A stretch of DNA of 64,000 nt from a virus (taxonomy: Duplodnaviria > Caudoviricetes). Under the pieces are notes generated by a model. The model saw nothing but the letters and a program-made list of their open reading frames with translations, searched no databases and was not told where the DNA came from. Location: IMG/VR virus record IMGVR_UViG_2857089846_000001, positions 1-64,000 of that record; one strand, written 5' to 3'. Of the stretch, positions 1,979-59,464 are shown in pieces (the first letter of the stretch is position 1; each line of letters starts with the position of its first letter). Position numbers and translations under genes: made by a program.

Positions 1979-3139
1979 ATGTCCTATCGCAGAATCGCCC
2001 AGTTACACGCCGCTCGCAGCGCGGCTACCAGCCGTGCCCTATCCCGGCCACGACCTCGTGCGGTCAACCGCGTGGTGCGCACTGCGCGAGTCCTGGTTCC
2101 GGTCGCCCCGTCGCCTCGGCGCCGGGCGGGTGCCGCTGGTGGCCACGAGCAGGGCGGTGGTTTGGACTGGGCGCGTCGAATAGAACTGGTCACGGTCGTT
2201 GTCGCGGCGGTCGTAGCGGTGGCTGGGTTGTGGTACTCGAACGTGCAGGCTCGGGAGCAGCGGGCAACGGAGTACGAAGGTCAGATCACCGACCGCTACA
2301 CCGCGGCCGTGGAGAACCTCGGCGACGATGCGATCGATGTACGGCTCGGCGGCATCTACGCCCTGCAGCGCATCATGCAGGACTCGGTCCGCGACCACCC
2401 CACCATCGTGAACGTCCTGACCGCCTACATCCGCAGCCACGCCCCCCTGCCCGAGGCGCCACGGCGCTCGGCAGAAGCTGAAGACCAGAAGAAGGAGCAG
2501 TCGAAACCGACTGAGCCGGATGCCGATGTCCAAGCCGCGCTGTCCGTCCTGGGCCGGCGCAACCCCATCCATGACGCTGGCCGCACCTGGATCGATCTGC
2601 ACAGAGCGGACCTGCGCGGCGCGGACCTGAGCAGCGCGGACCTGAGCAGCGCGGACCTGCGCGGCGCGGACCTGCGCGGCGCGACCCTGGGGAGCACGGA
2701 CCTGAGCGGAGCGGACCTGTTAATGGCGAACCTGCGCGGCGCGGACCTGGACGATGCGGACCTGAGCAGCGCGGACCTCCGCGGCACGGACCTCACTGGC
2801 GCGGGCCTCCGCGCCGCGGACCTCACTGGCGCGGAACTGAGCAGCGCGGACCTCCGCGACGCGGACCTGCGCGGCGCGGGCCTCCGCGACGCGGGCCTCC
2901 GCGGCGCGGACCTCCGCGCCGCGGACCTCACTGGCGCGGATCTGAGCAGCGCGGACCTCACTGGCGCGGACCTCCGCGGCGCGGACCTCCGCGGCGCGAA
3001 TCTCAGAAACTGTCGCGTCTCTGCAGGGCAGGTGGCAGCAGCGGTGCTCAATGCGTACACGAGGTTGCCGTCCGAAATTGCATCCGATCCGAAGGTGTGG
3101 GAGCGGGCCGCTCATCCGTTGCCGGCGGGTGCCCGTTGA
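1979..3139 (+). CDS. Membrane-anchored pentapeptide repeat protein
   Basis: TM segment, [12 protein letters not shown] domain, long A(D/N)LxG/ADLSS run; in-frame TTA codon at 2720. Start uncertain. Confidence 0.85.
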
Positions 3140-6844: not shown

Positions 6845-6966
6845 GTGCGCTGCAGCGCATCAGGCCAGGTGCGGTGTAGCGCACGTGGCCAGGTACGCCA
6901 CAGCGCACGTGGATTTCACCTGATGCGCTGCAGCGCACTAGGAAACCCTGATGCGCTGGAGCGCAC
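6845..6966. repeat. Array of five 16-bp palindromes RTGCGCTGCAGCGCAY
   Basis: Copies at 6845, 6869, 6893, 6923, 6951. Confidence 0.85.
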
Positions 6967-6971
6967 TTGGG

Positions 6972-7157
6972 CTATTTCCGCAGGCCACGACGGACACGGC
7001 GCAGGCGCTTCAGGCTGGAGGCGAGCATTCGGTCCAGGGCATCCCGGCCGGGCGGGTGGGCGTAGACGATCCGCGGGGGCACGGTCTCGCCGATCACCAG
7101 CCGGGAGGAAACGACACCGCCGGAGGGCCGGGCATCGGGTGCGGAGCTGTCAGTCAT
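6972..7157 (-). CDS. Small hypothetical protein (leaderless, late promoter)
   Basis: ATG lies 7 nt after GACGGTAG-N14-TACGTT (7165-7195). Confidence 0.6.
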   Translation of the reverse strand: MTDSSAPDARPSGGVVSSRLVIGETVPPRIVYAHPPGRDALDRMLASSLKRLRRVRRGLRK

Positions 7158-7199
7158 GGGCGGGAACGTAGACGCGGCCGCGTACTACCGTCCCGTGCG

Positions 7200-7646: not shown

Positions 7647-7862
7647 CTACAGGTAGCGGATCACCGCGGTGGCGCCGAGCCGGCCGAACGCGATCGACTC
7701 CCCGGTGAGGGTGACGGTGGCGGCCCGGCCACCGACGCGGATACGGATGGTGGAACCGAGCGGCGCTGCGCTAACGAAGGTGATCTCGCGGTCGCCGAAG
7801 AGCGGCTGGCCGTTGATCACGACGTACGTGCGCGGACGCGCGGCGGCGTTGTTCTGGCCCAT
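7647..7862 (-). CDS. Small hypothetical protein
   Basis: RBS gaaagg before ATG 7862; beta-rich composition. Confidence 0.6.
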   Translation of the reverse strand: MGQNNAAARPRTYVVINGQPLFGDREITFVSAAPLGSTIRIRVGGRAATVTLTGESIAFGRLGATAVIRYL

Positions 7863-7961
7863 TGGATGGCCTTTCGGTGCGGGGTTGCGACGCCAGGTTG
7901 GGCGCCTCACCCCTTCGGCGCGGTCGTGCGGGGTAGGACAGCATGACCGCGCAGGATTCGC

Positions 7962-8405
7962 TCAGGCCGCTGCCGCTATGTCTTCCTGCGCGAGCGTGGC
8001 GCCCTTGTAGGTCTTCAGGGCCTGCCGCGCCTTGACGACATCTTCCGGGGAGCAGTGCTGCCGGACGGCGTTCCAGTGCGGGTGACAGCTGACGTCGATC
8101 GCGCGCTCGCGGGCCTGCGCCCACAGCCGGTCATACTCGGCGTTCTGCTCGTCGGTCCAGCCGCCGGTTTCCGGCCGCGCGGTCTCCCGCCACCGTCCGC
8201 TGCCGGTGTCGTCCCATCCCCCGCCGGGCTCGACCGACCACGGCAGGTCAGGGTTCGCGCTGAAGGCGTGCAGTTCGGCGTAGGCGGCGGCAAGCGCCTG
8301 CTGCTTCTGGACCAGGTCGGGCGGGAAGTACAGGGGGTCGAACGGCTGCTCGTCGGCGGTGGAGGCGTTGTTCGTCGGGTTCTGCTCGGGGGAGGTGCTC
8401 GGCAT
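7962..8405 (-). CDS. Hypothetical protein
   Basis: Trp-rich ORF starting MPSTSPEQ. Confidence 0.6.
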   Translation of the reverse strand: MPSTSPEQNPTNNASTADEQPFDPLYFPPDLVQKQQALAAAYAELHAFSANPDLPWSVEPGGGWDDTGSGRWRETARPETGGWTDEQNAEYDRLWAQARERAIDVSCHPHWNAVRQHCSPEDVVKARQALKTYKGATLAQEDIAAAA

Positions 8406-24994: not shown

Positions 24995-25993
24995 ATGACC
25001 CCTGACGCTTTCGCCCGACTGTCCACCGGCGCCCGCCACGACGCGCTGCGCGTGGTGCGGCGGATGCAACTCGCCGACGCGCTGGAGAGCGCCCGCGCGG
25101 AGCTCGACGCCGCCCGCGAGACCCGCCGCATGACGAGCACCAAGCTCGACCAAGTGACGGCCCACGCCGAGAAGCTGGCCGGGCACAGCCTGATCTACCC
25201 GTACTCCCAGGACAGGCAGGACCAGCGGACGCACGTCGAAGCGCAGATCACGGAGCTGACGAGGACGGACACGCACGCCAAGGCGCACAAGGCCGCCGCC
25301 AACGTCGTGTACGAGTCCGCTCGGCTGGAGCTCGCGAAGCTGACCCGCCGCTCGCCGCGCGGCAACGAGGAGGCGCAGCGCTTCGCCCGTGTGCTGCGGC
25401 ACCTGCCCCTGGACGTGATGACCCAGTTGGTGCACGCCTCGAGCTACACCGTGACCCGGCTGTCCCTGGACCAGGGCGCCGCTGGCGGCTCTTGGGGGAC
25501 GGTCGATTCTCGCACCGTACGCCGCTCCCGGGTGCGCTCCATGCTCTCCGCATGGGCCAGGGAGCCGCAGACGTACATCCTGCGCGACGCGGACGGCCAG
25601 CTGTTCATCGCTGCCCCGTCGATCCTGCTTGAGCTCGTCCCCGACGACCTCGCGGCCCCGCCCACCGAGGGCGACGCGCTGAGGGCCGCACTCGACGTCT
25701 ACGGCATGACCGCGCGCAAGGACAGCGAAGGCGGCGTCACGTGGCTCGTGGTCCAGGTCGACCCGGAGGACGAGCCGTACGGCGGGCCGCACTTCCGCAT
25801 CTCCTCCGGCGGGCACGCGGACCGTCCGGCCTCCGCCCATGACGAGCTGTGGGGCGCCTCGCTCTACGACGCGGACGGCGCCTACGTGACCACGCTCGAC
25901 GCCGCGCCGGCGGGCTCCACCCTCGCCGAGGACAGCGCGCACATCGCTGGCGCCATCGCCACCTATGTCTGGGCCGTGCTCACCCAGCAGTGA
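24995..25993 (+). CDS. Hypothetical protein (coiled-coil N-terminus)
   Basis: RBS ggag; protein-like ORF. Confidence 0.75.
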   Translation: MTPDAFARLSTGARHDALRVVRRMQLADALESARAELDAARETRRMTSTKLDQVTAHAEKLAGHSLIYPYSQDRQDQRTHVEAQITELTRTDTHAKAHKAAANVVYESARLELAKLTRRSPRGNEEAQRFARVLRHLPLDVMTQLVHASSYTVTRLSLDQGAAGGSWGTVDSRTVRRSRVRSMLSAWAREPQTYILRDADGQLFIAAPSILLELVPDDLAAPPTEGDALRAALDVYGMTARKDSEGGVTWLVVQVDPEDEPYGGPHFRISSGGHADRPASAHDELWGASLYDADGAYVTTLDAAPAGSTLAEDSAHIAGAIATYVWAVLTQQ

Positions 25994-26087
25994 CCCGGAG
26001 CGCCGCACTGCCCGCCCGCGCCCCGGCACGGGCGGGGGTGTGCGGAACCCCGGTTCCCCCCTACCCCACCACCGCGAAAGGCCCCCC

Positions 26088-26810
26088 ATGCGCCCGTCCC
26101 TGCCCTCCGTCATCGTCGGAAACCCTGCCGCGCTGGCCGCGCATCTGGCCGCGCACCACATGCCCGGCCAGCGCTCGAAGACCGCCATCGCCCGCCTACG
26201 CCTCGAACGTCGGCGCCTGAACGCGCCGCTGCCCACGACTCGCCCGCTGCCCGAGCGTGCCCACGACCGGCTGTGGACGTCCGCGATCCGCGAGATCCGC
26301 CGCCGCGGCGGTGAGACCGAGATCGAAAGCAACTACGGCACCGCCGACCTGGAGATCACCGACCGGAAGAACCGCATGGTGCTGATGCACGCTGAAGGCT
26401 GGCGGCGCTACGGCAAGCAGCCGGCGCGGCGGGCCCAGCTCAGCTACCTGTGGGGCCCGGACGACGCTGGGTCCGGCCCTTGGGCCGTCCGCGTTCCCGG
26501 CACCGTGACCACCGTCGCCGATGCCCTGGAGTGGCTCACCCCGGCCGATGTGAAGAAGGCCCTGGAGAAGGGGCTCCGGGTGCGGCGCCAGGGCGACGTG
26601 TATGCGGTCGAGACGACACCGGCGCACGACGGCCGAGGCGTCGAGCTGCTGCCGGAGTCACACGAGTGGCGGCCCGCCACCCGCTACCTGGTCCACCGAC
26701 CCGAGGACGGCCGCCGCCACCTGCCGGTCCGGCTGCCATGGCCGGTCCGGTTCGTCCAGCAGAGCGCCTACGGCATGGGCCGCACCAGCGCGCGGGCCGC
26801 CGCCGACTGA
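26088..26810 (+). CDS. Hypothetical protein
   Basis: RBS gaaagg; RRQGDVY motif. Confidence 0.7.
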   Translation: MRPSLPSVIVGNPAALAAHLAAHHMPGQRSKTAIARLRLERRRLNAPLPTTRPLPERAHDRLWTSAIREIRRRGGETEIESNYGTADLEITDRKNRMVLMHAEGWRRYGKQPARRAQLSYLWGPDDAGSGPWAVRVPGTVTTVADALEWLTPADVKKALEKGLRVRRQGDVYAVETTPAHDGRGVELLPESHEWRPATRYLVHRPEDGRRHLPVRLPWPVRFVQQSAYGMGRTSARAAAD

Positions 26811-26887
26811 CCACCTTCACCGCACCGCCCCTCTCTCAGACAGTGGCCCGGCCGGATCGTCCGGCCGGGCCGGAAGGAAGAAGCCCC

Positions 26888-27880
26888 ATGATCACGCTCA
26901 GCCCCACCGGCGCGCGCATCCTCGACAGCAACAACGACGGCGTCGTCTCTGGCCACGCCGCGGCGATGGCCCGGCTCGAAGCCGACGGCCTGGTGGTCCG
27001 GCACGACCGCGACGGCGGGACGCACTGGATGACCGAGGACGGTTGGACGGCCCTGGACACGTGGCGCCAGAAGAACGGCCGGGCCCCGGCCGCGCCCGTC
27101 ACCATCCCGCGCAGGCTGCCCAAGGCCCAGCACGATGCGATCCTGACGGCCGCCGGCCGACCCGACCAGCTTGTCCCGGGCCGGGACGACGGCGACGTGT
27201 TCGCCGCCGGGGAGACGTGGTTCCGTGGGCCCACGCTGCGCGCCGTCCACGCCGCCGGATACGCGGACTTCTGGCGCCGCCCGGGCGAGGAGAACGCGCC
27301 GTACACGGGCCGGTCCCTGTATCTCACCCCGGCCGGCCGCGAGTACGCCCGGCTGCGCGGCAGCATCGACGTGCACCGCCGCCGGGTCGTGATCATCGCG
27401 TGCGGCTCGGAGAAGCTGCCGCACCCGGGCCGCAACGAGTACGGCAACCTGAACGCGGGCTACCCGGCCGGAGAGCTCTACACCGGCCAGTACCACCGGT
27501 CCCTGCGCCTGGCCGCGGACGCGCTGACTGCCCCATCCCTGATCCGGATAGCGTCCGCGCTGCACGGGCTGGTGGACCTCAAGCGCCCCCTCCTCCCGTA
27601 CGACGTGACGATCGGCGACGAGCGCGCCGTTACCGCCGAGAGAGTCGCCCGCCACGCAGCCGAACTCGGCACCGACGACGCCGACGTCATCTTCCTCGGC
27701 GGTCAGGAGTACGCCGCGCTGCTGCGCCCGGCGATCCCGCACCTGCTCACCCCGCTCGCCGGCGGAATGGGCGAGCACCGCGGACTGTGCAAGCAGGCCC
27801 GCGAGGACGCCGCCGTGCGCGACGCCTGGTGGAAGGAAGCCGCAGAACTTCACGCAGAGCACCACCCGGCCCGCGCCTGA
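26888..27880 (+). CDS. Protein with wHTH-like N-terminus and DUF6884-like C-terminal domain
   Basis: VIIACGSEK..PAGELYTG..SALHGLV..PYDVT..FLGG..PLAG resembles DUF6884. Confidence 0.7.
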   Translation: MITLSPTGARILDSNNDGVVSGHAAAMARLEADGLVVRHDRDGGTHWMTEDGWTALDTWRQKNGRAPAAPVTIPRRLPKAQHDAILTAAGRPDQLVPGRDDGDVFAAGETWFRGPTLRAVHAAGYADFWRRPGEENAPYTGRSLYLTPAGREYARLRGSIDVHRRRVVIIACGSEKLPHPGRNEYGNLNAGYPAGELYTGQYHRSLRLAADALTAPSLIRIASALHGLVDLKRPLLPYDVTIGDERAVTAERVARHAAELGTDDADVIFLGGQEYAALLRPAIPHLLTPLAGGMGEHRGLCKQAREDAAVRDAWWKEAAELHAEHHPARA

Positions 27881-27897
27881 GAGGCTATGGTGGCTTC

Positions 27898-28100
27898 ACT
27901 CTCCCCGCCGCTGCGGGGGTGGTCCAGGCCGACATCTGCCCGGCCGGTCCCTGCTCCCCGCGCAAGCGGGGTTGGCCCCATATCCGTTACACCGTGACGG
28001 ACGAGGCAACTTGCTCCCCGCACAAGCGGGGTTTCCTCCCTCTTGGCCTCCCGATGAGGCTGCACTGTCCGTTGTTCCCCCGCATGTGTGGGGGTGGATC
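27898..28100 (+). CRISPR. Degenerate orphan type I-E-like mini-array (4 repeats, 3 spacers)
   Basis: Repeats like CTGCTCCCCGCGCAAGCGGGGTTGGCCC at 27898, 27951, 28011, 28073; periods 53/60/62 nt; no cas gene in the window. Confidence 0.7.
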
Positions 28101-28113
28101 GAAGGGATTGGCG

Positions 28114-28791
28114 GTGTCTCGTACCCCTTCGCGGCCGCACCCGTTGGCCGCGTACGCGGAGAAGATCGACGTAGAGGCGGTCTACACCCTGCGGCAGGTC
28201 GCCGGGCTGATGGAACTGGCGCCGAGCAGCGTGCAGGCCATGGCTCGCCACGGGTGGCTTCCCGGTAGCCGAGTGCGGCCCCACGCCCGTGGCGGGCGGC
28301 GGTACACGTGGACGGGGAAGCAGCTGCTGCGGCTTGCGAACCGGCCCATCCGGGTCGCGTTCGACCATGAGCTGTTCTCGCCGACGACGCTGTACCGGGT
28401 CGGCTGCCGGTGCCAGACATGTGTGGACGCCCACACGGTAGAGAGCCGGGAGCGTCGCCACCGGCTCTCCGACGAGGCTTTCCCCGAAGAGAAGCAGAAG
28501 CGGCTTCTCGGCCTGGTCGCCGATCAGATGCCCGTGGCCGAGGCCGCAGCAGCAGTCGGGGTGACTCTCGGCCAGGTCTACGGGCGCGCGAACTGGGACC
28601 CCTCGTTCGCCGAGGAATTGGACGAGGCGGCATGGTCCTTGTGCGTGCTGGGCCCGGACTCGCCCGGTTGCAGCACACCGTCGGGGTACCGCGGGTATGC
28701 CCGCGGGCGAGACCCCCGGCCGGCGTGCCGGGGAACCGGGTGCCGGGAGTGGCGCCGGGAGACGTCGCAGCAGGCGCGTGCCGCCGCCTGA
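28114..28791 (+). CDS. DNA-binding protein: excisionase-like HTH + Zn finger + HTH + Zn finger
   Basis: YTLRQVAGLM..MARHGWLPG; YRVGCRCQTC; VAEAAAAVGVTLGQVY; C..GY..C..C; RBS gaaggga. Confidence 0.7.
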   Translation: MSRTPSRPHPLAAYAEKIDVEAVYTLRQVAGLMELAPSSVQAMARHGWLPGSRVRPHARGGRRYTWTGKQLLRLANRPIRVAFDHELFSPTTLYRVGCRCQTCVDAHTVESRERRHRLSDEAFPEEKQKRLLGLVADQMPVAEAAAAVGVTLGQVYGRANWDPSFAEELDEAAWSLCVLGPDSPGCSTPSGYRGYARGRDPRPACRGTGCREWRRETSQQARAAA

Positions 28792-28844
28792 GTCGTGTGC
28801 CGTACGGTTGCATGCGCCGGTGCTGTCTTGCCCGAGACAGCAGT

Positions 28845-28873
28845 AGAGGGGCCCCAGAATCTGGGGCCCCTCT
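28845..28873. terminator. Bidirectional hairpin terminator
   Basis: agaggggccccag-aat-ctggggcccctct between convergent genes. Confidence 0.7.
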
Positions 28874-28917
28874 TGCTTCCGTTCCGCCTGCACCCCCGTG
28901 TCAGGCGAGACGGCGGA

Positions 28918-30492
28918 TCAGGCGGTAAGCGCCGGGGCCTTCGGTGCCGCGGGCAGCACGGGCGCGAGGAGCTTTGCCACGGAGACCAGGGTTCGGTCCG
29001 ACAAGTACGGGCCGATGAGCTGGATCGACATGGGCAGGCCCTCGGCTGTCTTACCCACGGGCAACACGAGCGAGGGCAGACCCACCGGGCTGGCCAGGTT
29101 GATCCAGCTCGTCTGGGCGAAGTACGACCGCTTCTCCCCGTCGACGGTGATGTACCGCTGCGGGACGGGCACGGACGTCTGATCGAGGACGGCGGCAGTC
29201 GGCGCTGCCGGGGTGATGAGGATGTCGTGCTCAGTGAAGTAGTCGGCCCAGATGCCGCGGAGCTTCTGCCGGTCCTCATCGGCGCGCGCCCAGTCCCGGT
29301 GCCGCATGGTGCGGGACTTGAGGAACAGGGCGGCGGGGTCGTCGTCGGCCATGGCGTCGGCGGCCTTGATCTCGTCGGCGAACCCGGCGTCCGTTGCGGT
29401 CGCCGAGGCGGTCGCGTACAGGAGTCGCTGGAACAGGATGTCGCTCGTGGCCATGTCCACGGGCCGGGTGGAGTTGTCGATGATGGCGCCGGCCGTGCGC
29501 AGGGCCGTGGCGACCTGGTTCAGCAGGTTGCGGGTGGCGGAGTCGACACCGCAGTAGGCGTCGTCGGCCCAGATGCCGACGCGGTACTGGCTGAGGCGCG
29601 TCTTGGTGGGCGCGGGCAGGCGGATCTTCCACGCGGCGCTGTCGGCCGGGGACGGTGCGGCGAGCACGTCCAGGAGGAGGGCGAGGTCCGCCGCGGTGCG
29701 GGCGATGGGGCCGAGGGTGACCATGTCGGAACTGGTCAGCCAGTCCGGTGGGCGAGGGATGTGGCCGCGGGTCGGCACGATCGGCGAGGCGCCGCGGGAA
29801 GTCCGCAGCGCGTACACGCCGCAGTACGCGGCCGGGAGGCGCAGGGAGCCCGCGAGGTCGGAGCCGACTTCAAGGGGGGTCAGTCCCGCGGCGACGGCGG
29901 CGGCCGGCCCGCCGGAGGAGCCGCCCGCAGTGCGGTCCTCGGCGAAGGGGTTCTTGGTCTTGCCGAAGATGGGGTTGCTGGTCTGGATGTCCTGGCACAG
30001 CGTCGGGACGTTGGTCTTGCCGATGATGATGGCGCCGGCGGCGCGCAGGAGCGCGACGGCGTCGGCGTCCGTGTCCGGGACGTGGTCGGTGAGGTCGGTG
30101 GACCCGCACGTGGTGCGCATCCCCTTGGTCTCCAACGCGTCCTTCACGGTCAGGGGCAGGCCGTGTAGCGGGCCCAGCGTCCGGCCGGTCGCTGCGAGGT
30201 ACTTATCGGCTTTGTCGGCGGCGGCGCGCGCGCCCTCGATGTCGAGGGTGACGACCGCGTTGAGGCCCGGGTTGACCCTTGCGTGGTGCTCCAGCAGCTG
30301 GTCGAGCAGCGCGCGGCTGGATATCTGACGGTTGCGCAGGGCACTGACCTGCGTGCGTGCGGGGGCGAGGTGCATCTGGCCGGTGCCGCCGCCGGCGGCG
30401 GCGGGCTTCGTCTCGGCTGCGGCGGCGGTGCGCGGCAGACCGATGACGCTTGCAGCGGCCGCGGAGGCGGCGAGGAGGCTGCGACGGGACAT
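28918..30492 (-). CDS. Tat-exported amidase (amidase signature family)
   Basis: SRRSLL Tat signal; LTVKD, GGSSGG, GSDLAGSLRLP (Ser-cisSer-Lys triad motifs). Confidence 0.9.
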   Translation of the reverse strand: MSRRSLLAASAAAASVIGLPRTAAAAETKPAAAGGGTGQMHLAPARTQVSALRNRQISSRALLDQLLEHHARVNPGLNAVVTLDIEGARAAADKADKYLAATGRTLGPLHGLPLTVKDALETKGMRTTCGSTDLTDHVPDTDADAVALLRAAGAIIIGKTNVPTLCQDIQTSNPIFGKTKNPFAEDRTAGGSSGGPAAAVAAGLTPLEVGSDLAGSLRLPAAYCGVYALRTSRGASPIVPTRGHIPRPPDWLTSSDMVTLGPIARTAADLALLLDVLAAPSPADSAAWKIRLPAPTKTRLSQYRVGIWADDAYCGVDSATRNLLNQVATALRTAGAIIDNSTRPVDMATSDILFQRLLYATASATATDAGFADEIKAADAMADDDPAALFLKSRTMRHRDWARADEDRQKLRGIWADYFTEHDILITPAAPTAAVLDQTSVPVPQRYITVDGEKRSYFAQTSWINLASPVGLPSLVLPVGKTAEGLPMSIQLIGPYLSDRTLVSVAKLLAPVLPAAPKAPALTA

Positions 30493-31715
30493 CACGTACT
30501 GGCTCCATGGTTGGCGCTGGGGGCGAGCGAATCGGAAGGAGTCTCCGGCCCGGGTGCAGCAAAGAACGAAGCGACACGCAGGAGGTGCGCCTGCTCAGCC
30601 TCGACCGTGTCGAGGGTGAGAGCAGCGTCGGCGAAATCCGCCGGTTCGGCGACCGGCTTGCCCCGTCCGAGGAGCACGATCGCGTGCCGCAGCTGGTCGG
30701 CGGTGACGGCCGCGGCGAGCTTCTCCCCGGTGAGGCCTTCCTGACGGCGGCAGGCCTCGGCCTCGGTACGGACCGCGGAGGACAGGTACGGCCGCAAAGC
30801 GACCTGTCCGTCGCGGATCTCGGTGCGGCGACGGATCAGGGGAAAGTGGATGCTCTCCCGCTTGCGCAGGTAGTCCCGCTGGGGCGTCGGCTCGATGAGG
30901 ACGATGCTCGGGTCTGCGTGCACCAGCGCCGCCCACAGCCTGTCGAGACGGGCGTAGCTGTAGTGCTCGTAGGCGAAGGTGTACAGCGCCCTGGCGCGGA
31001 TGGCGAGGACCGGAAGGAAGTACCCGATCTGAGTCAGGGTGGCGCCGATGTCGCCGCAGGCCCACGCGAACTCGTTGAGGTGCTGGACAGTGAAGCCGAC
31101 TTCTGCCCCGACGATGGCCGCGATGCGGATGCCGCTGTAGCCGAGGGTGATGATGGCGCCGACCGTGACGAGGCGCAGGCCGACGGCGATGGACCGGGTG
31201 GAGGCGTTGCGGGCGTACTTCCAGCAGGCGCGGGCCAGGTAGATTTCCGCGGCCGTGTACGTGCCGAAGTACAGCAGGACGTACGCCTGGTAGAAGGGGT
31301 CGTGCGCGTAGTACGTCGCGAAGTCCACGGGCCGCTGGGTGGCCGGGGTGAGCAGCGTGAACAGGACGGCCATGCCGACGATGACCACGCCGCCCGTGAT
31401 GAGCAGCTTCCGGGAGCGGTAGCGGGCCTCCTCCGGCGGCTTCGACCAGTACGCGATGACGCTGCACTGGAGTGCCAGGACGGCGATCACGAAGGACTGC
31501 GCGATCGGTACGACGATGTTGGGGACTCCGAAGAAGCCGTCGACGCGCACCCATACCCACGTGATGGATACGGCGTAGCTGAGGGCGGAGGCAAGGAACG
31601 CGGCGGCGAGGGCGACCAGGGCGCGGTCGCGCCGGTCACGCCTGAGATCGCGGAGCAGGACGAGGAACCCTGTGCCCGCGATGACCAGGCACAGGGGGTG
31701 GAGGATGTCTTTCAA
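30492..31715 (-). CDS. MAB_1171c-family membrane protein (DUF6545-like C-terminus)
   Basis: About 7 TM helices followed by RRRTEIRDG..LRPY. Confidence 0.8.
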   Translation of the reverse strand: MKDILHPLCLVIAGTGFLVLLRDLRRDRRDRALVALAAAFLASALSYAVSITWVWVRVDGFFGVPNIVVPIAQSFVIAVLALQCSVIAYWSKPPEEARYRSRKLLITGGVVIVGMAVLFTLLTPATQRPVDFATYYAHDPFYQAYVLLYFGTYTAAEIYLARACWKYARNASTRSIAVGLRLVTVGAIITLGYSGIRIAAIVGAEVGFTVQHLNEFAWACGDIGATLTQIGYFLPVLAIRARALYTFAYEHYSYARLDRLWAALVHADPSIVLIEPTPQRDYLRKRESIHFPLIRRRTEIRDGQVALRPYLSSAVRTEAEACRRQEGLTGEKLAAAVTADQLRHAIVLLGRGKPVAEPADFADAALTLDTVEAEQAHLLRVASFFAAPGPETPSDSLAPSANHGAST

Positions 31716-44647: not shown

Positions 44648-45603
44648 CCGCTCACGACCCCGCTGACCTGGAAGAGCAGGTAGAGGCCACGCTGGGCCGC
44701 AAGGCTCCATACTCGCGGATTCCCGACTGGGTGACGCTGCACCCCGACGTCGAACCGCAGGCCATCGCGCTGTACTGCGTGCTGGCCGCGCACGTGAACA
44801 TCTCCCGTTCCGACAGTCTGGTGTGGCCGACACGGCTGGCCATGGCGGAGATGCTCGGCTACACCCGCCCGCAGTCGGTGGACAAGTACATCAAGCAGCT
44901 CGAAGCCATCGGCGCGATCGACACCGAGGACTTCTCCCGGCCCAACGGCGCCAAGGGGAAGCGGTACACCGTCCACGAGACTCCGCCGGACGACTTCGAC
45001 GGCGTTCACACGTTGTCCGCCTGGTACAAGCGGCGCCGCGAAGGCCTCGCCGCAGCCGGGCCTGCCCCGAAGCCGGGCCGCCCCCGCAAGAAGACGCCGG
45101 CCAAGGCGGATCAGGTTGCCGAGGCGCCGAAGCCTGCGGCGAAGAAGGCAGCCGCCCCGAAGCCTGCGGCGAAGGAGAAGACGCCCGAGGAGCTCGCTCT
45201 CGATGAGCAGGCCCGGAACGGCGCCGACAGGTGGTGGGAGCAGGCGGGCGAGCTGGTCACGAAGAAGAAGATGGGTCCCCTCATGGGGACCCCGAAGCAG
45301 AAGAGCGGCTACTACCTGAACGTGCGCACCCGCATCCGGGAGGCCCTGGCAGCGGGCTACGACTCGCGCGTCATCTGGCAGGCCCTGCACGACATCGGTG
45401 AGTGGTCGCCCGCGAAGCGGGAGCTGGACCGGGCCCTGCGGCGCCTGTCCGGTGTCCGCCCGTCGCGTGCGAACAGCCACGGCCGGGCCCCCATCTTCAC
45501 CAACGACCAGTGGCAGCAGAACCAGCCCGAGCAGGACGCTACGCCCGCGGTGCCTGCCGCCCCGGACCTGGCGGTGTTCGGTGTCCAGTCCGATGGTGTC
45601 TGA
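44644..45603 (+). CDS. Phage replication initiator (HTH_36-like)
   Basis: YSRIPDWV..LYCVLA..WPTRLAMAEMLG..SVDKYIKQLEAIGAI; upstream of a DnaC-like gene. Confidence 0.75.
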   Translation: MTAHDPADLEEQVEATLGRKAPYSRIPDWVTLHPDVEPQAIALYCVLAAHVNISRSDSLVWPTRLAMAEMLGYTRPQSVDKYIKQLEAIGAIDTEDFSRPNGAKGKRYTVHETPPDDFDGVHTLSAWYKRRREGLAAAGPAPKPGRPRKKTPAKADQVAEAPKPAAKKAAAPKPAAKEKTPEELALDEQARNGADRWWEQAGELVTKKKMGPLMGTPKQKSGYYLNVRTRIREALAAGYDSRVIWQALHDIGEWSPAKRELDRALRRLSGVRPSRANSHGRAPIFTNDQWQQNQPEQDATPAVPAAPDLAVFGVQSDGV

Positions 45604-45634
45604 CCAGCCGACCGACGAGAGGAGGACCGACGAC

Positions 45635-46441
45635 ATGTCGATCGCTCTGCCTGCCCCCGCCCCTCCCGAGAGCCGCGAGCCGGTGCCCGCCGCCAGCCCG
45701 GTGGCCGCCGTCAGGGAGATCCTGCTGCGCCGTGGGCTCGACCCCAGCAAGGCAGCGCTCACGGAAGACCGGCCGGACAGCACCGAGGACTACCAGCGGC
45801 AGGTGTACCGGCAGGCGTGGGTGAACTCCCTCGCCCTCTCCGGCCACGCGGAGTACGCGCGCTACACGCTCGACTCGCTGGACGAGGCACAGTTCCCCCA
45901 GCATCTGCGGGAGTACGTCGGTCAGCTTTCGGCCGCACGCCGCCACAACCGCGAGCAGGCCAAGCTCGACCCCGAGGACCGGCGGATACTGCGGCCGAAC
46001 ATCCTCAACCTCATCGCGGCCGGTGGTGTCGGCGCGGGCAAGACAGTCGCCGCGGCGGCGGCCGGCGCGTTCGCCGTCGAGTGCGGCCTGATGGCGCGCT
46101 TCGTGTCCCACTCCATGTACCTGTCGTGGCTCCAGCCGGACAACGCCCCGGCGGGGCTGACCAAGGTTCAGGTGCGGGAGCGCTACGAGCGGTGCGATCT
46201 GCTGATCGTGGACGACCTGTGCAACGAGATGGACCAGTACGCCACGAACCACGTACGCACCAACACCTCGGACCTGATCACGTCCCGGATCAACTCCGGC
46301 CGCGCGACGCTGTTCACGACCAACCTCAACTTCGACCAGGTCGCCGAAGTCCTCGGCGAGCGGCTGGCGTCCCGCGTCGGCAACCGTGCGACGGTGCTGA
46401 AGATGATGGGAGATGACCGGCGAAAGCCGCAAAGGTGGTAG
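45635..46441 (+). CDS. DnaC/IstB-like helicase loader ATPase
   Basis: GGVGAGKT, DLLIVDDL, TLFTTN, GERLASR, GDDRR. Confidence 0.85.
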   Translation: MSIALPAPAPPESREPVPAASPVAAVREILLRRGLDPSKAALTEDRPDSTEDYQRQVYRQAWVNSLALSGHAEYARYTLDSLDEAQFPQHLREYVGQLSAARRHNREQAKLDPEDRRILRPNILNLIAAGGVGAGKTVAAAAAGAFAVECGLMARFVSHSMYLSWLQPDNAPAGLTKVQVRERYERCDLLIVDDLCNEMDQYATNHVRTNTSDLITSRINSGRATLFTTNLNFDQVAEVLGERLASRVGNRATVLKMMGDDRRKPQRW

Positions 46442-53236: not shown

Positions 53237-56200
53237 TTACTTGGTGTAGGTGACGCGGAGCAGTGGGGGGTAGGTCTCCCCGACGCCGCGGGCGGAGCCG
53301 TAGTACGTCGAGGAAGTCGAGTTGGGGTCCAGGGCGATGCCGCGCCACGTCGTGGAGTCGAACACGCTGGTGATATTGACCCATTTGCCCTCATTGCGTT
53401 TCCAGGCGACGGACATGGACTCGGCGTCGGAGGAGAACGTCGACGGGCGGGATGCGTGCTTGTGGGCCTTGATGACGGCCGTGCCGCCGGCGTTGGCGTA
53501 CCAGTGGTCGAAGTAGAGGTAGACCTCCGCCTTGTTGATCACGGCCCCGGACAGGTCGGTCGCCAGCTGGGGGTGGAAGCCGACGAGGGACGCCTGCACG
53601 CCGTTGGTCGACGACACGTAGCCGCACATCATCTGGTTGCCGTAGTAGCTGTTGTAGGACCCGCGGTTGGCGTACGAGCCGGACCAGGACGCGGCGTAGG
53701 TCTTGGTGACCGTCGTCTTCGGCGGGGTGGACGAGCCGCCGCCGGTGTTGAACACGCCGGTGTCCGGGACGGCCGGGCCGGTGTCCTCGATGTAGAACAG
53801 GCCGGGCCACCCCGTACTGCCCTTGAGGGCCACGTTCTGCCCTGCGGGGCCGCCGCTGCAGCGGAAGGTCGACAGCAGGCGGTGGAGCCCGGCACCGAAC
53901 TGGGCGCCGGACTTGATCAGCTCCATGCGGACTCGGCGGAGACCGTCCGTCGTCATCGGGTAGATGCCGGACTGGATCTGCGGGGAGCCGATGCTGGGGG
54001 CGGACGCACCGCCGTCCTTGAACACCAGCACCAGCTCGCCGCCGGCCACGGACGGGTCGGCGTAGACGTCCAGGACGACGCGGTACATGCGGCTCGCGTC
54101 GGCCTCGAAGGCGAGCTCGACGTATCCGAAGTCGGTCGTGCCCGCGGTGACCGTCCCGGACTGCTGGCTCTGGGCGATGATCCCGCGGGCGCCGTTGGCG
54201 AGGAGGCCGTCGATGGGGTCGCCGCCCACGGTGAAGCTGCCGGCGACGGCCAGGTCGCCGAAACCCGCGTTGCCGTGCTGGTCGATCGTGGCCACGGGGA
54301 GGCCGTCGGTGGACATGGTGAGGTAGTTGGGGCGGCCGGTCACCAGGGCCACGGCCTCCTGGCCGTCGCCGTCGAACAGCGTCAGCCCCATCGGGGACAG
54401 CTCCGCGCGGCCGCCGGCGATTCCGGAGGCGAGGACGGGCCGTGCTTCGACGTTGTCGTACGCCACGGTGCCGGCGGTGGAGTCCACGGTGGACAGGGCG
54501 ACGCGGACGCGGACGGTGTTCGGCGGGGCGGCCTCGGTGGGGACGCCGGCGACGCGCTGCCAGGAGCCGAGGACCACGTTCCCCGCTCCGGGGGTCACGG
54601 TGCTGAAGCCGAGGGTGTTTCCCGCCGCGTCCTCCCAGCGGGCGTAGATGCTGACCCGCACCCCCAGCCAGTCGGTGGACGCGAGGTAGTCCATGGCCAG
54701 GAACATCTTCTGCCCGGGGGTGGCGGGTGCGAGGGCGAGGGTGTGGGTGCGGGTGACGGCGGCCGCGGCCGTGGCGTTCACCTGAACCCCGCGGGGGGTG
54801 CCGTTGCCGGTGGCCAGGCTCCAATGCGTCTGTCCGACCAGGCGCTGGTCGGTGACGGCGCCCTCGAACGACGGGTCGGCGATGAGGTTGCCGTCGCTGC
54901 CGAGTGACAGCTTGTCCGCGCTGATCGACCCGGCCTTGATGTGGACGGCGTCGATCGCCCCCGCTTCGATCTTGGAGGCGGTGACGGAGTTGACGGCCAG
55001 CTTGTCCGCGGTCACCGAGAGGGCGGCGAGCTTGTCCGTGGTGATCGCGAGAGAGGCGATCTTCTCCGCGGTCACGGCCAGGGCGAGGAGCTTGTCGGTG
55101 GTGATGGCCCCGGCGAGGATCTTCGGGGCGGTGATCGCGCCGTCCGCGATCTGCACCCCCGGGACGACCGGGCGCAGCGCGGCGTTGTCGAACCAGGCGT
55201 CGCCCGCGGTGGTGTTGGCGTTCTGCAGGCGGATGCTCGCCCGGGTCGTCCCGGCCGGGGCGGTGACGGTGGCCGCGAACCGGGTCCACGCCTCCCGGAT
55301 CGGGCTGGTGCCGGTGCCGGCGACGCCGTAGCCGAGGATGTTCCCGGCCGCGTCCTCCCAGCGGGCGTAGAGGTTGGCCGAGTTCCCCGCCCAGTCGGCC
55401 GAGAGGTAGTAGTCGCATGCCAGGTAGAGCTGGTCGCCTTCCAGGGCGGGGATCAGGGTGAGCGGGACGTCCCGGTAGACGGGGGTGGCCGAGCGGCCAT
55501 CGATCTTCACGGAGGATGCGGAGCCGTTCCCGCGGGTCTTGTCCTGGGTGGCGTAGGACAGGCCGGAGACGAGGGTCGCGGTCAGGGCGCCCTCGAACGA
55601 GGGGTCGGGGAGGATGTTGGAGCCGCCGGTGACGGTCAGCTTGTCGGTGGTCACCGCGCCCGCGGCGATCTCCGCGGCGGTGACCGAGTTGGCCTGGAGC
55701 TCCCGGGCGCCGATCGTGTCCGCTGCGACCTTCCCCGCGATCACGGCATCCGTGGCGATGGCCCCGGCGGTGACCGAGCCGGTGACCAGGTTGGTCGAGT
55801 TGACGACACCGGTGCGCAGGGCCTCGATCGTGAAGACGTCGACCTCCATGACCGACGCCGTCGACTTGCCGAAGTTCAACCAGAGCACGGGCCGCAGGAA
55901 GCGCACGTTGGCGTGCGTGGTGCCGGGAAGGCGCGGGTCGGTCTGCGGGCCGGCGGGAGCGGTGGCGCCCTGCGCGGCGCGGCCCTGGAGGTAGCCGACG
56001 TACGTCTTCCAGCCGTCGGCGACGGTGAGGGTGCCGCCGTTGGTGCCGCAGTAGTAGTGCATCGAGTTCGACGCGAGGCCCGAGCGGTTGACCAGCGTGA
56101 TGCCGTCGTCGGCGACGCCGACCGCGCCGACGTACAGGGTGGCCGGGCCGCTGGGGTCCTGCGCGGTGGCCCGGACCCGGGCCATGACCCGGTACAGGGT

Positions 56201-57130
56201 GTCGGTGTCCTGCGCGGCGAGCGCCTTCCCGGCGAGCTGCACGTCCCCGGTGGCGGTGAGCAGCCCGCCGCCGGACGGGGTGCCGGTGGCCGCGGGGTCG
56301 ATGACCCACGTGCCGCCGCCGGACGCGGCGAGCTGCTGCCAGCTCGCCGGGTCGCGGAAAATGTCGACGTACCGCTGGGTCGCGGAGTCGCCCAGCGGGC
56401 CGCCGAGGGCGTTGAGGGTGACCGCCCCTTGGGCGAGCGCGGCCTGGGTGACGCTGTTCTTGGCGAGCTTGTCGGCGAGGACCGCGCCGTCGGCCAGGGC
56501 CGCGGAGTTCACCGCGGCAAGGGCGATCTTCGCGGCGGTCACGGCGCTCGCGGCGAGCTTGGTCTCGGTGACGATGCCGTCGACCAGGTCCTGCTCGACA
56601 GCCTGCCGCGGGGTGCCTTCCGTCGCGGCCGAGGGCGGGCCGGTGATGGCGGCGGTGTTCGCGCCGACCAGGCGGACGTACACCGTGGCGTAGCCCTCGA
56701 TGGCGACGGTGACGGTGCCGCCGAGCGGGGCGGTGATCGTGGCGACGAGGGTGGACACGTCGGGCGTGAAGTCGGCGGCCGGCCCGACGTGGACCTGGAT
56801 CAGGGAGAAGTCGGTGGGGGTGGTGTACGAGTCGTCCCACAGTCCGTCCCAGCCGATGAGGAGTCCGGCGAGAACAGGCTCGACCGTGGGCGCGGTCGGC
56901 GTGGGCGGTGCGGGGGTGTTGACGGGGACCAGGGCGACACCGCCGTCGGGCTGGACACCCACGGAGCCCTTGAGCTGCCCCTCGGCGTCGTAAATGTCCA
57001 TCGCGCCGCCCTCGATGGACGTGTACGGCGCCTGCGTCTCGCGCTCCAGCGCCTGCAGGCGCCGGTCGTAGTCGTGCAGGAGCTGCGCGATTCTCCGGGC
57101 TTCGCGCTGGTCGTCGAGGAATGTCGCCAT
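53237..57130 (-). CDS. Large minor tail/receptor-binding protein with two CBM-like domains
   Basis: (A/S)VTAxKL repeats; two NxxxDPSFEG..WEDAAGN..DN domains; leaderless ATG at 57130. Confidence 0.85.
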   Translation of the reverse strand: MATFLDDQREARRIAQLLHDYDRRLQALERETQAPYTSIEGGAMDIYDAEGQLKGSVGVQPDGGVALVPVNTPAPPTPTAPTVEPVLAGLLIGWDGLWDDSYTTPTDFSLIQVHVGPAADFTPDVSTLVATITAPLGGTVTVAIEGYATVYVRLVGANTAAITGPPSAATEGTPRQAVEQDLVDGIVTETKLAASAVTAAKIALAAVNSAALADGAVLADKLAKNSVTQAALAQGAVTLNALGGPLGDSATQRYVDIFRDPASWQQLAASGGGTWVIDPAATGTPSGGGLLTATGDVQLAGKALAAQDTDTLYRVMARVRATAQDPSGPATLYVGAVGVADDGITLVNRSGLASNSMHYYCGTNGGTLTVADGWKTYVGYLQGRAAQGATAPAGPQTDPRLPGTTHANVRFLRPVLWLNFGKSTASVMEVDVFTIEALRTGVVNSTNLVTGSVTAGAIATDAVIAGKVAADTIGARELQANSVTAAEIAAGAVTTDKLTVTGGSNILPDPSFEGALTATLVSGLSYATQDKTRGNGSASSVKIDGRSATPVYRDVPLTLIPALEGDQLYLACDYYLSADWAGNSANLYARWEDAAGNILGYGVAGTGTSPIREAWTRFAATVTAPAGTTRASIRLQNANTTAGDAWFDNAALRPVVPGVQIADGAITAPKILAGAITTDKLLALAVTAEKIASLAITTDKLAALSVTADKLAVNSVTASKIEAGAIDAVHIKAGSISADKLSLGSDGNLIADPSFEGAVTDQRLVGQTHWSLATGNGTPRGVQVNATAAAAVTRTHTLALAPATPGQKMFLAMDYLASTDWLGVRVSIYARWEDAAGNTLGFSTVTPGAGNVVLGSWQRVAGVPTEAAPPNTVRVRVALSTVDSTAGTVAYDNVEARPVLASGIAGGRAELSPMGLTLFDGDGQEAVALVTGRPNYLTMSTDGLPVATIDQHGNAGFGDLAVAGSFTVGGDPIDGLLANGARGIIAQSQQSGTVTAGTTDFGYVELAFEADASRMYRVVLDVYADPSVAGGELVLVFKDGGASAPSIGSPQIQSGIYPMTTDGLRRVRMELIKSGAQFGAGLHRLLSTFRCSGGPAGQNVALKGSTGWPGLFYIEDTGPAVPDTGVFNTGGGSSTPPKTTVTKTYAASWSGSYANRGSYNSYYGNQMMCGYVSSTNGVQASLVGFHPQLATDLSGAVINKAEVYLYFDHWYANAGGTAVIKAHKHASRPSTFSSDAESMSVAWKRNEGKWVNITSVFDSTTWRGIALDPNSTSSTYYGSARGVGETYPPLLRVTYTK

Positions 57131-57186
57131 GGCCGCGGATGCTGCGGCCCGCGGCCCCTTAACGTCGCGCCCTGCCCGGCGGCCGG

Positions 57187-58392
57187 TCAGTACACGAAGG
57201 AATCGCTGCGGCGCAGGCCGAGGACGCAGGTGCCGCCGTCCGCGCTGATCTCCTCGGAGACGATGCGGTGCCACAGGTCGATGTCGCCGTACCACGGCAC
57301 GTGGACCTGGACGCGGATGTCGTCGCCGAGCTGCCAGGAACCGAACCGGGCGTTGGGGTGGTTGATGAGCTGGATCGCGGGAATCTGGATCGACCCGGTG
57401 CGGGCGTTCAGCTCCTTCATCCCGCGGGCCCGCATCGCGGCCGCGGTCTTGAGGGACTTGTCCGCGACCGTCACGACCCGCCGCAGCCGGCCCGCCTCGT
57501 AGCGGTGGACCTGGAACCGCCACATCTTCCGGCCCTCGCCCTTGCCGAGGACCATCACCTCGTTCGCGTACTCATCGCCCATACCCTCCGGCTTGGCGAT
57601 GGCCGCGATGTTCTCCCCGTCGGCGAACCGCAGGTCGTCGCGCTTGCGGCCGAGCCGGGGCCGGCCGAGCCGGATACGGGAGTCGATCTGGTTGCCCGTC
57701 CCGGTCCAGGCGTGGGTCTCGATCCAGTCGAACGGGATGCTCTGGGCGAGCTGGTCGAGTGCCTGCCCGCAGTCGGGATGGTTCCACCAGGCGAGCTCCC
57801 ACGGGTCGGAGCCGTCGGCCGCGCCGAGGAGCTCCCCCAGGTACCCGTCATCGATCGTCAAGCCGATGTTCCCGTACGGCCGCGACTGGATGTGGTTCCA
57901 GATGTTCCGGAAGGCCACGAACGCGTCGATCCGCGGCCCCCCGTACGGCTTCGGCGGCGGCGGGACCTTCTGCTTGCCCTTCTTCCCGTCCACCCAGCCG
58001 TCGTTGTTCTTGTCCTTGCCCGCGTACGGGTCCTTCGGGGTGATCAGCGGCCCGGACAGCATGTGACTCTCGTACGGGATGCCGTGCGCGTACGCGGAGA
58101 ACCCCTCGCACTGCACCATCGCCTTCGGCCCGTCGAACGAGGTCTTGGTGACGATGCCGCCCCACCGCAGAGCTCCGTCGACTTCGAGGAACAGCTTGGT
58201 GCCCCACTCCTCGATGATCGGCCTGCCGTCCGGGCCGAGGAGCCGGCTGTACTCCGGCTCGATCGCGCCGTTCATCGACCCCGGCCCGGACAGGTCCCGG
58301 CGCGGGTTCGATGACAGGGTCAGCGGCACCTCCCAGTCGAGAACCTCCTCCGGCAGCGCGCGCACGGCGATGAACCGCCAGCCCTCCGCCAT
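57187..58392 (-). CDS. Minor tail protein (Tal/hub-like)
   Basis: LRWGGIV, LRFADGENI, YANEVMVLGKGEG, LGDDIRV; position in the tail module. Confidence 0.8.
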   Translation of the reverse strand: MAEGWRFIAVRALPEEVLDWEVPLTLSSNPRRDLSGPGSMNGAIEPEYSRLLGPDGRPIIEEWGTKLFLEVDGALRWGGIVTKTSFDGPKAMVQCEGFSAYAHGIPYESHMLSGPLITPKDPYAGKDKNNDGWVDGKKGKQKVPPPPKPYGGPRIDAFVAFRNIWNHIQSRPYGNIGLTIDDGYLGELLGAADGSDPWELAWWNHPDCGQALDQLAQSIPFDWIETHAWTGTGNQIDSRIRLGRPRLGRKRDDLRFADGENIAAIAKPEGMGDEYANEVMVLGKGEGRKMWRFQVHRYEAGRLRRVVTVADKSLKTAAAMRARGMKELNARTGSIQIPAIQLINHPNARFGSWQLGDDIRVQVHVPWYGDIDLWHRIVSEEISADGGTCVLGLRRSDSFVY

Positions 58393-59378: not shown

Positions 59379-59464
59379 GGCTGTACCTCCGCTGATTGGT
59401 GTTCTCAGCGGCGGACTGTCGCCTGGCCGAGGGCCTTACGTCGCGCCCTGCTTCCCCCTCCGCC

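Follow-up and report, generated by a model that had tools for sequence, protein, structure and literature searches.

RNA anti-CRISPRs (Racrs) are mimics of the repeats of CRISPR arrays that are carried by phages and plasmids and trap Cas6 and Cas7, and type I-E examples have been validated (available portion of Camara-Wilpert et al. 2023, PMC10651486). The function of Cracrs requires at least nine base pairs of spacer complementarity, proximal to the protospacer-adjacent motif (PAM), to the promoter of a cas or toxin gene (available portion of Liu et al., 10.1101/2024.10.29.618823). Here we describe a repeat-bearing module in the Caudoviricetes record IMGVR_UViG_2857089846_000001, of which positions 1 to 64,000 were analyzed (this whole 64,000-nucleotide (nt) stretch is called the window). 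The module (27898–28791, + strand) consists of four heterogeneous I-E-like repeats directly ahead of P0001, a gene for a helix-turn-helix (HTH)/zinc-finger protein. Repeats of this kind accompany the gene family across diverse mobile elements, and their hairpins are conserved while the spacers drift. We read the leader, tentatively and at somewhat less than an even chance, as a multiplexed Racr-like repeat-mimic decoy RNA that would be co-transcribed with an Aca-like regulator. Taken more broadly, its role is probably to disturb or to sense the CRISPR immunity of the host, not to guide it.

The module resembles the Racrs, as characterized in the available part of the 2023 paper, in being an intergenic, cas-less CRISPR-repeat mimic carried by phages and plasmids, in lying just past a promoter (a candidate promoter here), and in that the repeat rather than the spacer would be the acting part. 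It differs in stringing together three to six non-identical repeats, always as the 5′ leader of one gene family, and its anti-CRISPR activity is a predicted one. Published searches, so far as the available text gives their methods, would miss such clusters because they sought solitary repeats or spacer complementarity; SRUFinder left out repeats next to other full or partial repeats (PMC10651486). No description of the architecture or of the protein family was found in the literature searched, parts of which were available only as extracts, and the Racr and Cracr candidate lists may include some of the loci.

With the Cracrs, which in the available part of their report include type I-E and Actinomycetota examples, the module shares a multiplexed arrangement of repeat-like units carried by phages and plasmids, but the window spacers lack complementarity to the host cas locus and the module spacers are not conserved in the family. 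Viral CRISPR mini-arrays, the subject of Medvedeva et al. 2019, are said to take part in inter-virus conflict. Their repeats are host-identical and their spacers are directed against related viruses (available portion of the review PMC11656645). The module is likewise a short cas-less array on mobile elements and, as these arrays do, would rely on Cas proteins of the host, but its repeats match the host repeat at only 16–22 of 29 positions and no targets were found for it in phage and plasmid collections. Aca proteins are HTH regulators encoded at the 3′ end of anti-defense units and kept across mobile elements. P0001 also lies at the 3′ end of its unit on different mobile elements, with co-transcription suggested by the layout; its product differs in that it combines two HTH domains with a pair of zinc sites, and the unit contains no evident acr protein gene.

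Canonical Streptomyces I-E arrays (those of the host and of plasmid loci L054–L058) share with the module the repeat sequence, the hairpin of the I-E stem-loop consensus, a direct-repeat length of about 29 nt, the orientation and, in two of three intervals, a period of ∼61 nt. They have identical repeats and strict 32-nt spacers, whereas the module has neither, nor a CRISPR leader or cas neighbors: its repeats are not near-identical and its spacing is irregular, in contrast to the uniform arrays of the host. An earlier, preliminary description of the locus as a degenerate I-E array is borne out, with mutual repeat identities of 15–24/29; the I-E-like repeat shape that it reported is clearest in the second repeat (27/29 against a genuine repeat), while its ∼61-nt period holds for the two intervals only.

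Layout of the leader and its gene

The features of the module are as follows:

27886–27891, +, −10-like hexamer TATGGT (TAnnnT), a candidate promoter from reading of the sequence
27898–27926, +, repeat R1, 29 nt, ACTCTCCCCGCCGCTGCGGGGGTGGTCCA
27927–27950, +, spacer-like S1, 24 nt
27951–27979, +, repeat R2, CTGCTCCCCGCGCAAGCGGGGTTGGCCCC, a near-intact class-1 I-E repeat
27980–28010, +, spacer-like S2, 31 nt
28011–28039, +, repeat R3, stem whole, 3′ handle degenerate, 22/29 against class 1
28040–28072, +, spacer-like S3, 33 nt
28073–28101, +, repeat R4, TGTTCCCCCGCATGTGTGGGGGTGGATCG, with one stem G-U pair
28102–28107, +, Shine-Dalgarno sequence AAGGGA, 6 nt ahead of the GTG at 28114
28114–28791, +, DNA-binding gene P0001, 225 residues, GTG start, HTH/zinc-finger
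28845–28873, +, perfect palindrome with 14-bp arms past the gene, terminator-like, without a T-run

In each repeat unit a 6-bp G+C stem encloses a 4-nt loop (CCCCGC-N4-GCGGGG), and the repeats stand in crRNA (CRISPR RNA) sense on the same strand as the downstream gene, with periods of 53, 60 and 62 nt. The 8-nt 3′ handle of R4 touches the Shine-Dalgarno sequence, so that the end of R4 and the GTG are 12 nt apart. The preliminary description had counted four repeats, all of which are present at 29 nt each; its three spacers also stand, at 24, 31 and 33 nt rather than the 25, 32 and 34 nt that follow from assuming 28-nt repeats, and the close placement of the array end holds with a gap one nucleotide shorter than the 13 bp it gave.

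The exact hairpin motif occurs three times in the window, each time in the array. Allowing one mismatch, seven occurrences are found, a fourth array unit among them, against 3.8 expected window-wide. An Rfam scan of 25000–31000 gave no more than two weak matches below their gathering scores, CRISPR-DR28 on R2 (20.7 bits; gathering score 35) and BjrC68 on the terminator-like hairpin. The palindrome at 28845–28873 was not called by a terminator scan; on its sequence it would end a one-gene transcription unit.

Joint occurrence of the repeats with the gene on mobile elements

All full-length homologues of P0001 whose upstream region could be fetched were compared. These 22 loci comprise the window, four plasmid records (the circular pZL1, typed as conjugative, and three linear plasmids, of S. 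microflavus, of NBC_00445 and pFRL3), 15 genome contigs and two IMG/VR contigs. One to five I-E-like hairpins are present within 260–300 nt upstream of the gene in 22/22 loci, and at least two in 20. In 20 loci, strict hairpins number 60 in 5,200 nt upstream of the gene against 124 in 697,752 strand-nt elsewhere, an enrichment of ∼65-fold. Truncated or partial homologues (L012 and L048–L051) have repeats in 0/5 cases. The array–gene co-occurrence proposed as a check in the preliminary description thus extends to every full-length homologue and to a distant phage homologue described below, and the mobile-element setting that it assumed is also seen, comprising prophage-like islands, circular and linear plasmids, viral contigs and phages. 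The S. solincola and S. pseudogriseolus loci have island genes in common with the window, and the pZL1-like loci only the array and the gene, so that the two appear as an independent module on differing backbones.

The placement of the last hairpin is also recurrent. It lies 35–42 nt from the start codon in 14/22 full-length loci, and in most homologous loci the corresponding position, touched by the 8-nt handle, is occupied by AAGGGA or AAAGG. In eight loci (L031, L032, L037, L039, L043, L044, L046 and L047) the last hairpin is out of this register.

A candidate promoter precedes the first repeat. In the window, TATGGT lies 6 nt past the stop codon of the upstream gene and 6 nt short of R1. 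Counting the 22 full-length loci and the Eklok phage locus described below, a perfect TAnnnT starts 8–22 nt ahead of repeat 1 in 14/23 (1.2% expected by chance per locus), at position −12/−13 in 12 of them, and most of the others have near variants at the same place (e.g. CATAGT, CATCAT). From this consensus argument we infer a promoter, with the transcript start predicted at or beside the first base of R1; a promoter scan with an E. coli-type model returned nothing.

Several leaders have additional features. In L044 the repeat leader is present as a tandem duplicate (6916–7160 and 7763–7996, ∼850 nt apart), and the upstream copy sits ahead of a different open reading frame (ORF) of ∼150 codons; the leader is therefore attachable to another gene. 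L036 and L041 contain a perfect non-CRISPR hairpin, CTTCCC-N4-GGGAAG, ∼145–149 nt before the gene start, which in pZL1-like leaders lies in the second linker directly ahead of the next repeat, and similar sequence aligns at this position in L035, L039, L042 and L044. On plasmid NZ_CP109103.1 (L056, 1815–2317), a regular array has progressively degenerate end repeats that stop ∼110 nt ahead of a small hypothetical gene; it might be an intermediate between array and leader.

Conservation of stems and drift of spacers

Two leader alignments of seven loci each were compared by mean pairwise identity per region:

Stems, 0.82 in the first alignment and 0.90 in the second
Loops, 0.64 and 0.41
5′ and 3′ repeat flanks, 0.69 and 0.56
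Spacers, 0.49 and 0.33, with gaps commoner than elsewhere

Standard pairs make up 94.9% and 97.6% of the stem cells in the two alignments, and 42–67% when the partners are slid by one to three columns. Among one-sided stem changes in genuine repeats, read on the sense strand, there are ten G-U pairs and one A-C, an excess that favors constraint at the RNA level, with the proviso that some of these changes may share descent.

The spacers align position by position between loci, with differences consisting of substitutions and indels; S3, for example, aligns with the equivalent stretch of L033, L034 and L045 in the leader alignment with many differences. Family-wide, spacer lengths range from 4 to more than 60 nt and repeat periods from 17 to 119 nt. 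The spacer differences look like descent rather than replacement by acquisition, and, as would not be the case in a canonical array, the spacers are neither matched to foreign sequences in the phage and plasmid collections searched (below) nor turning over between relatives. Taken together, these patterns read as repeat hairpins under purifying selection with drifting spacers, and as repeats, not spacers, being the functional part of the leader. Erosion of spacers among relatives, which the preliminary description had named as the mark of a relic, is indeed seen, but the module does not look like a relic, because the stems are retained amid drifting spacers and repeats and gene are strictly linked.

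Repeat variants and host type I-E systems

The host chromosome (7.29 Mb) encodes a complete type I-E system (cas3-cse1-cse2-cas7-cas5-cas6e-cas1-cas2) at 1.32–1.33 Mb, with an array on either side, one of 17 and one of 22 copies of an invariant repeat, GTCCTCCCCGCCGACGCGGGGGTGTTCCG, in which every spacer is 32 nt long. This locus is ∼5.7 Mb from the window, so that the term Cas-less used in the preliminary description applies locally and not genome-wide. R1 is the copy nearest to the host repeat (22/29), and it is R2 that closely matches (27/29) a genuine Streptomyces class-1 repeat. The comparison with host arrays that had been proposed was thus made, and the host repeat is a different one.

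Cas6e matches in 200 sampled Streptomyces genomes fall mostly into two groups by Pfam score, roughly 125–160 and 185–240 bits. Repeats beside the higher-scoring Cas6e group have the form CTGCT/GTGGT-CCCCGC-N4-GCGGGG-(A/T/C)TGnnCCC, and those beside the lower-scoring group end in GGTGnnCCG, the host's own repeat and a CTCCGC..GCGGAG type being among their variants. R1 of five pZL1-like loci agrees best with the CTCCGC type (25–27/29 positions, against 24 or fewer for other types), while in the same loci R2 holds the 20-nt core of the host-type (G000-type) repeat, and the later units are class-1-like. This is suggestive of "multiplexing", in which the repeats of one leader would mimic several I-E variants.

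Cas genes lie near the module in 1/23 homologous loci. Cas6e is found in 9/15 other carrier genomes, which are not independent of one another, against 86/200 sampled Streptomyces genomes; dependence on a resident I-E system is therefore not evident. The single cas-adjacent locus, L031 (linear plasmid NZ_CP107915.1, 1–6000), carries helicase-cse1-cas7-cas5e-cas6e, with no cas1 or cas2 annotated there, a three-repeat mini-array of a CCCCAC..GTGGGG variant directly past cas6e, and, ∼0.9 kb beyond the mini-array, the homologue of the window gene, annotated at 477 residues.

Search for spacer targets

The spacers were searched as had been proposed in the preliminary description, which raised the possibility of anti-competitor or repressing crRNAs, and this guide function finds no support: no protospacer was found in the host genome, its cas locus, phages or plasmids, and the spacer lengths are irregular. 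Against the host genome, S1–S3 gave no non-self match beyond 15–18 nt. Aligned without gaps to the host cas locus, they score at best 16/24, 18/31 and 19/33, which does not exceed shuffled nulls, nor does the score of a "virtual" fourth spacer taken from the 5′ end of the gene (20/33), and the nine or more PAM-proximal matches to a cas promoter that characterize Cracrs are absent from the host cas locus, the only one compared. A search with the leader through 50,697 phage records and 72,556 plasmid records gave repeat-driven matches only, at a sensitivity limited for queries of 24–33 nt; four plasmid matches that were inspected are ordinary regular arrays. In the opposite direction, 308 unique natural I-E spacers gave no credible protospacer in or near the module at any module-bearing locus.

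One natural spacer matches the window elsewhere. A spacer in a regular I-E array of S. anulatus plasmid NZ_CP109402.1 (L054, ∼3149) matches 58852–58883 on the − strand at 28/32 positions, within a minor-tail gene, with 15 contiguous matches at the spacer 5′ (PAM) side and with CAG as the three nucleotides upstream. The match is a hint of targeting of this phage family by I-E arrays in Streptomyces.

P0001 and its counterpart in Eklok-group phages

The protein has, in order, an N-terminal winged HTH domain (BldC/Xis/MerR-like), a CxCxxCxxxH zinc knuckle, an HTH_23-like domain and a C-terminal four-Cys region, in line with the four modules recognized in the preliminary description. Residues C98, C100, C103 and H107, and C177, C186, C205 and C210, are invariant in an alignment of 27 homologues. 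Pfam returned a sub-threshold HTH_23 match only, and PHROGs a weak match to a small-terminase family (65 residues, E 3.7e-5). The AlphaFold model (predicted local distance difference test score 78.9) has a winged HTH at residues 10–75, a long helix past the first zinc knuckle, a helical HTH at 125–172 and a poorly defined Cys-rich tail. A fold search of the Protein Data Bank gave no full-length match (best E 0.045), while the N-terminal domain resembles BldC (6ama_B; probability 1.0, 54 residues, template-modeling score 0.60 to the target); a search of a protein atlas yielded nothing beyond "hypothetical" clusters of the protein itself and the generic HTH_17 and HTH_23 families. The gene is single-copy in the genome. 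A protein search gave 66 homologues, of which all organism-named ones are from Streptomyces and many lie on contigs of 124–142 kb; "hypothetical" is the name given to most, and a single one is called "helix-turn-helix domain-containing protein".

Comparison of P0001 with the phage collection gave nothing at E 1e-5, and the phage counterpart surfaced through the leader DNA. The leader matched 16 phage records, comprising eight closely related Streptomyces phages (Eklok, AxeJC, Piccadilly, Ignacio, Vondra, Cumberbatch, Eastland and HFrancette), in an unannotated gap. In Eklok (L053, MT521991), the region 2321–2633 contains six I-E-like repeats at 49–61-nt spacing, preceded by a −10-like TACGAT hexamer and followed by a ribosome-binding site and, directly downstream, gene 54 (2648–3136), which encodes a 162-residue product. 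In the seven sister phages the leader match lies in the same arrangement. Gp54 aligns to P0001 residues 99–215 (BLASTP E 1e-10, 33% identity, hhalign probability 98.2%), an overlap that spans the zinc knuckle, the HTH and the second Cys motif, and lacks the BldC-like N-terminal domain. Within the phage collection, homologues of the gp54 type occur only in the Eklok group, and a search of IMG/VR with gp54 found none.

Genomic context of the window

Other features of the window are as follows:

1–1776, −, large terminase (PHROG match)
26450–27880, +, upstream neighbor of the module, DUF6884-family protein (also phrog_5935/5436), TGA at 27878–27880
45398–46441, +, DnaC-like helicase loader (PHROG match)
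53237–60403, −, Dit, minor-tail and fiber genes (PHROG match)
60390–63998, −, tape measure (PHROG match)

Nearly all other ORFs of the window have no Pfam family, and by its gene content the window appears to be prophage-like. The module is flanked by the DUF6884 gene and an amidase gene; the DUF6884 neighbor is 72% identical to its counterpart in a syntenic S. solincola contig, where it lies ∼1.4 kb from the array. Terminase and module are both present on a 125.9-kb IMG/VR contig (CheckV 95%), and on L036, a 125-kb contig, a large terminase 77% identical to that of the window lies directly upstream of the module; pZL1 gave no terminase match. The PHROG match of P0001 and the L036 terminase prompted consideration of a small-terminase or pac-site role, which was ranked low because the module is also found at sites remote from terminases, as well as on linear plasmids of large size.

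Proposed role and alternatives

In the decoy reading that we tentatively prefer, the locus would be one transcription unit, consisting of a promoter, four heterogeneous hairpins with meaningless linkers, a ribosome-binding site, the zinc/HTH gene and a terminator-like hairpin. The leader RNA would imitate the crRNA precursors of several Streptomyces I-E variants, and host Cas6e would bind and probably cut it, perhaps with loading of Cas5 and Cas7. Cascade components would thus be tied up by a multiplexed, Racr-type RNA anti-CRISPR, and the co-transcribed HTH protein would regulate the locus in the manner of an Aca. A possible target is available in the complete I-E system of the host and in the Cas6e found among sampled Streptomyces genomes.

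Several observations weigh against this reading. Covariation in the stems is weak: one pair per alignment is altered on both sides, and 14–116 of 500 shuffles equal the observed covariation values, so the stem signal appears to be mostly sequence conservation, which would also be expected of a DNA site. The window repeats match the repeat of their own host poorly (16–22/29, as given above), and many assignments of repeats to variants are ambiguous because the natural variants differ from one another at only 4–8/29 positions. No Cas6e match was found in 6/15 other carriers, and enrichment of Cas6e among carriers is not clear. Racrs are solitary by definition, as against four repeats here and one to six in relatives. 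Finally, the constant protein family and the fixed register of hairpin, 8 nt and Shine-Dalgarno sequence suggest that the leader serves the gene.

This last point leads to a different use of the same leader, which is possible though unlikely: the repeats would be a cis-regulatory part of the regulator mRNA that reports on CRISPR status. Cas6e cleavage at R4 would leave a 5′-OH mRNA beginning with the 8-nt handle followed by the Shine-Dalgarno sequence, or else assembly of Cas5 and Cas7 from the R4 handle would mask the ribosome-binding site. Either way the level of the regulator would follow active I-E machinery, an arrangement compatible with the decoy and perhaps coexisting with it. The recurrent placement of the last hairpin (14/22 loci) with its handle abutting AAGGGA or AAAGG, the same protein family always downstream, including the phage homologue of 33% identity, and the common strand of gene and repeats in crRNA sense all fit this idea; a single cleavage switch would need fewer than three to six repeats, 6/15 carrier genomes lack Cas6e, and in eight loci the last hairpin is out of register. 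At a similarly low probability, the leader would let the element sense whether, and which, I-E immunity is active and adjust the level of a DNA-binding master regulator to match, and it would sequester Cas proteins as well; no description of such a CRISPR-sensing riboregulator use of repeats was found in the literature searched. A role at the level of DNA, which we consider rather unlikely, would make the palindromes operators, or centromere- or cosB-like sites, for the HTH protein, which would serve autoregulation or some other DNA transaction, with the CRISPR likeness due to their origin. The BldC-like N-terminal domain (BldC was solved bound to DNA in 6ama_B), the conservation mainly of sequence with scant covariation, a ParA-like reading frame divergent from the module in L011, and the L036 terminase with the weak small-terminase match of P0001 are consistent with it. 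However, the repeats of one leader differ (15–24/29) and follow different CRISPR variants, including their non-palindromic flanks, and are therefore unlike the sites of a single protein; in addition, the 10:1 ratio of G-U over A-C points to sense RNA, the ∼60-nt spacing is not that of adjacent sites, and the Eklok homologue has six repeats yet no BldC-like domain.

Hairpins of CRISPR origin might instead act independently of Cas proteins as mRNA stabilizers, insulators or attenuators, an explanation that we regard as improbable. The centroid fold of the leader retains the R2, R3 and R4 hairpins, the module persists in genomes without Cas6e, and the second array copy of L044 stands ahead of a different ORF; on the other side, the flanks (5′ GCT, 3′ GTG/ATG) are conserved as well, with up to 27/29 identity to real I-E repeats, which counts against generic hairpins because these need no flanks, and the fold z-score of the entire leader is only −1.9. 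There is still less to recommend a working guide array that would use host Cascade against competitors or repress cas or other promoters. The host does encode Cascade, and the 24 nt of S1 equal the length of the psiS1 spacer in a type I-E Cracr array (available portion of 10.1101/2024.10.29.618823), but this reading is disfavored because the spacers drift, with 33–49% identity, indels and lengths of 4 nt upward across orthologous loci, and have no targets in what was searched: matches to the host stop at 15–18 nt, those to its cas locus lie within shuffled nulls, and the phage and plasmid records gave no spacer-level match, within the limited sensitivity for such short queries. Least probable of all, and by our estimate very much so, is a decaying, functionless orphan array hitch-hiking beside the gene. 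Degenerate repeats, irregular spacing and the absence of adjacent cas genes would be expected of one, but linkage across loci and selection on the stems exclude a relic: stems are 82–90% identical amid randomized linkers, and repeats accompany 22/22 intact and 0/5 truncated homologues on unrelated backbones.

Implications

Both RNA anti-CRISPRs and regulators that resemble crRNAs were discovered recently, and the module described here represents a conserved, multi-repeat and apparently spacer-independent design tied to one regulator family, with a range that covers Streptomyces prophages, phage-like elements of ∼125 kb, linear and circular plasmids, and a group of lytic or temperate phages. 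Heterogeneous repeats, a promoter directly upstream and a last repeat abutting the ribosome-binding site together provide a signature for finding more such loci, with a possible practical bearing on phage and plasmid work and on I-E-based genome engineering in Streptomyces. If the leader is a decoy, its spectrum would be broad, since mimics of several I-E variants would be mixed in it; if it is a sensor, it would represent a new route by which mobile elements read host immunity.

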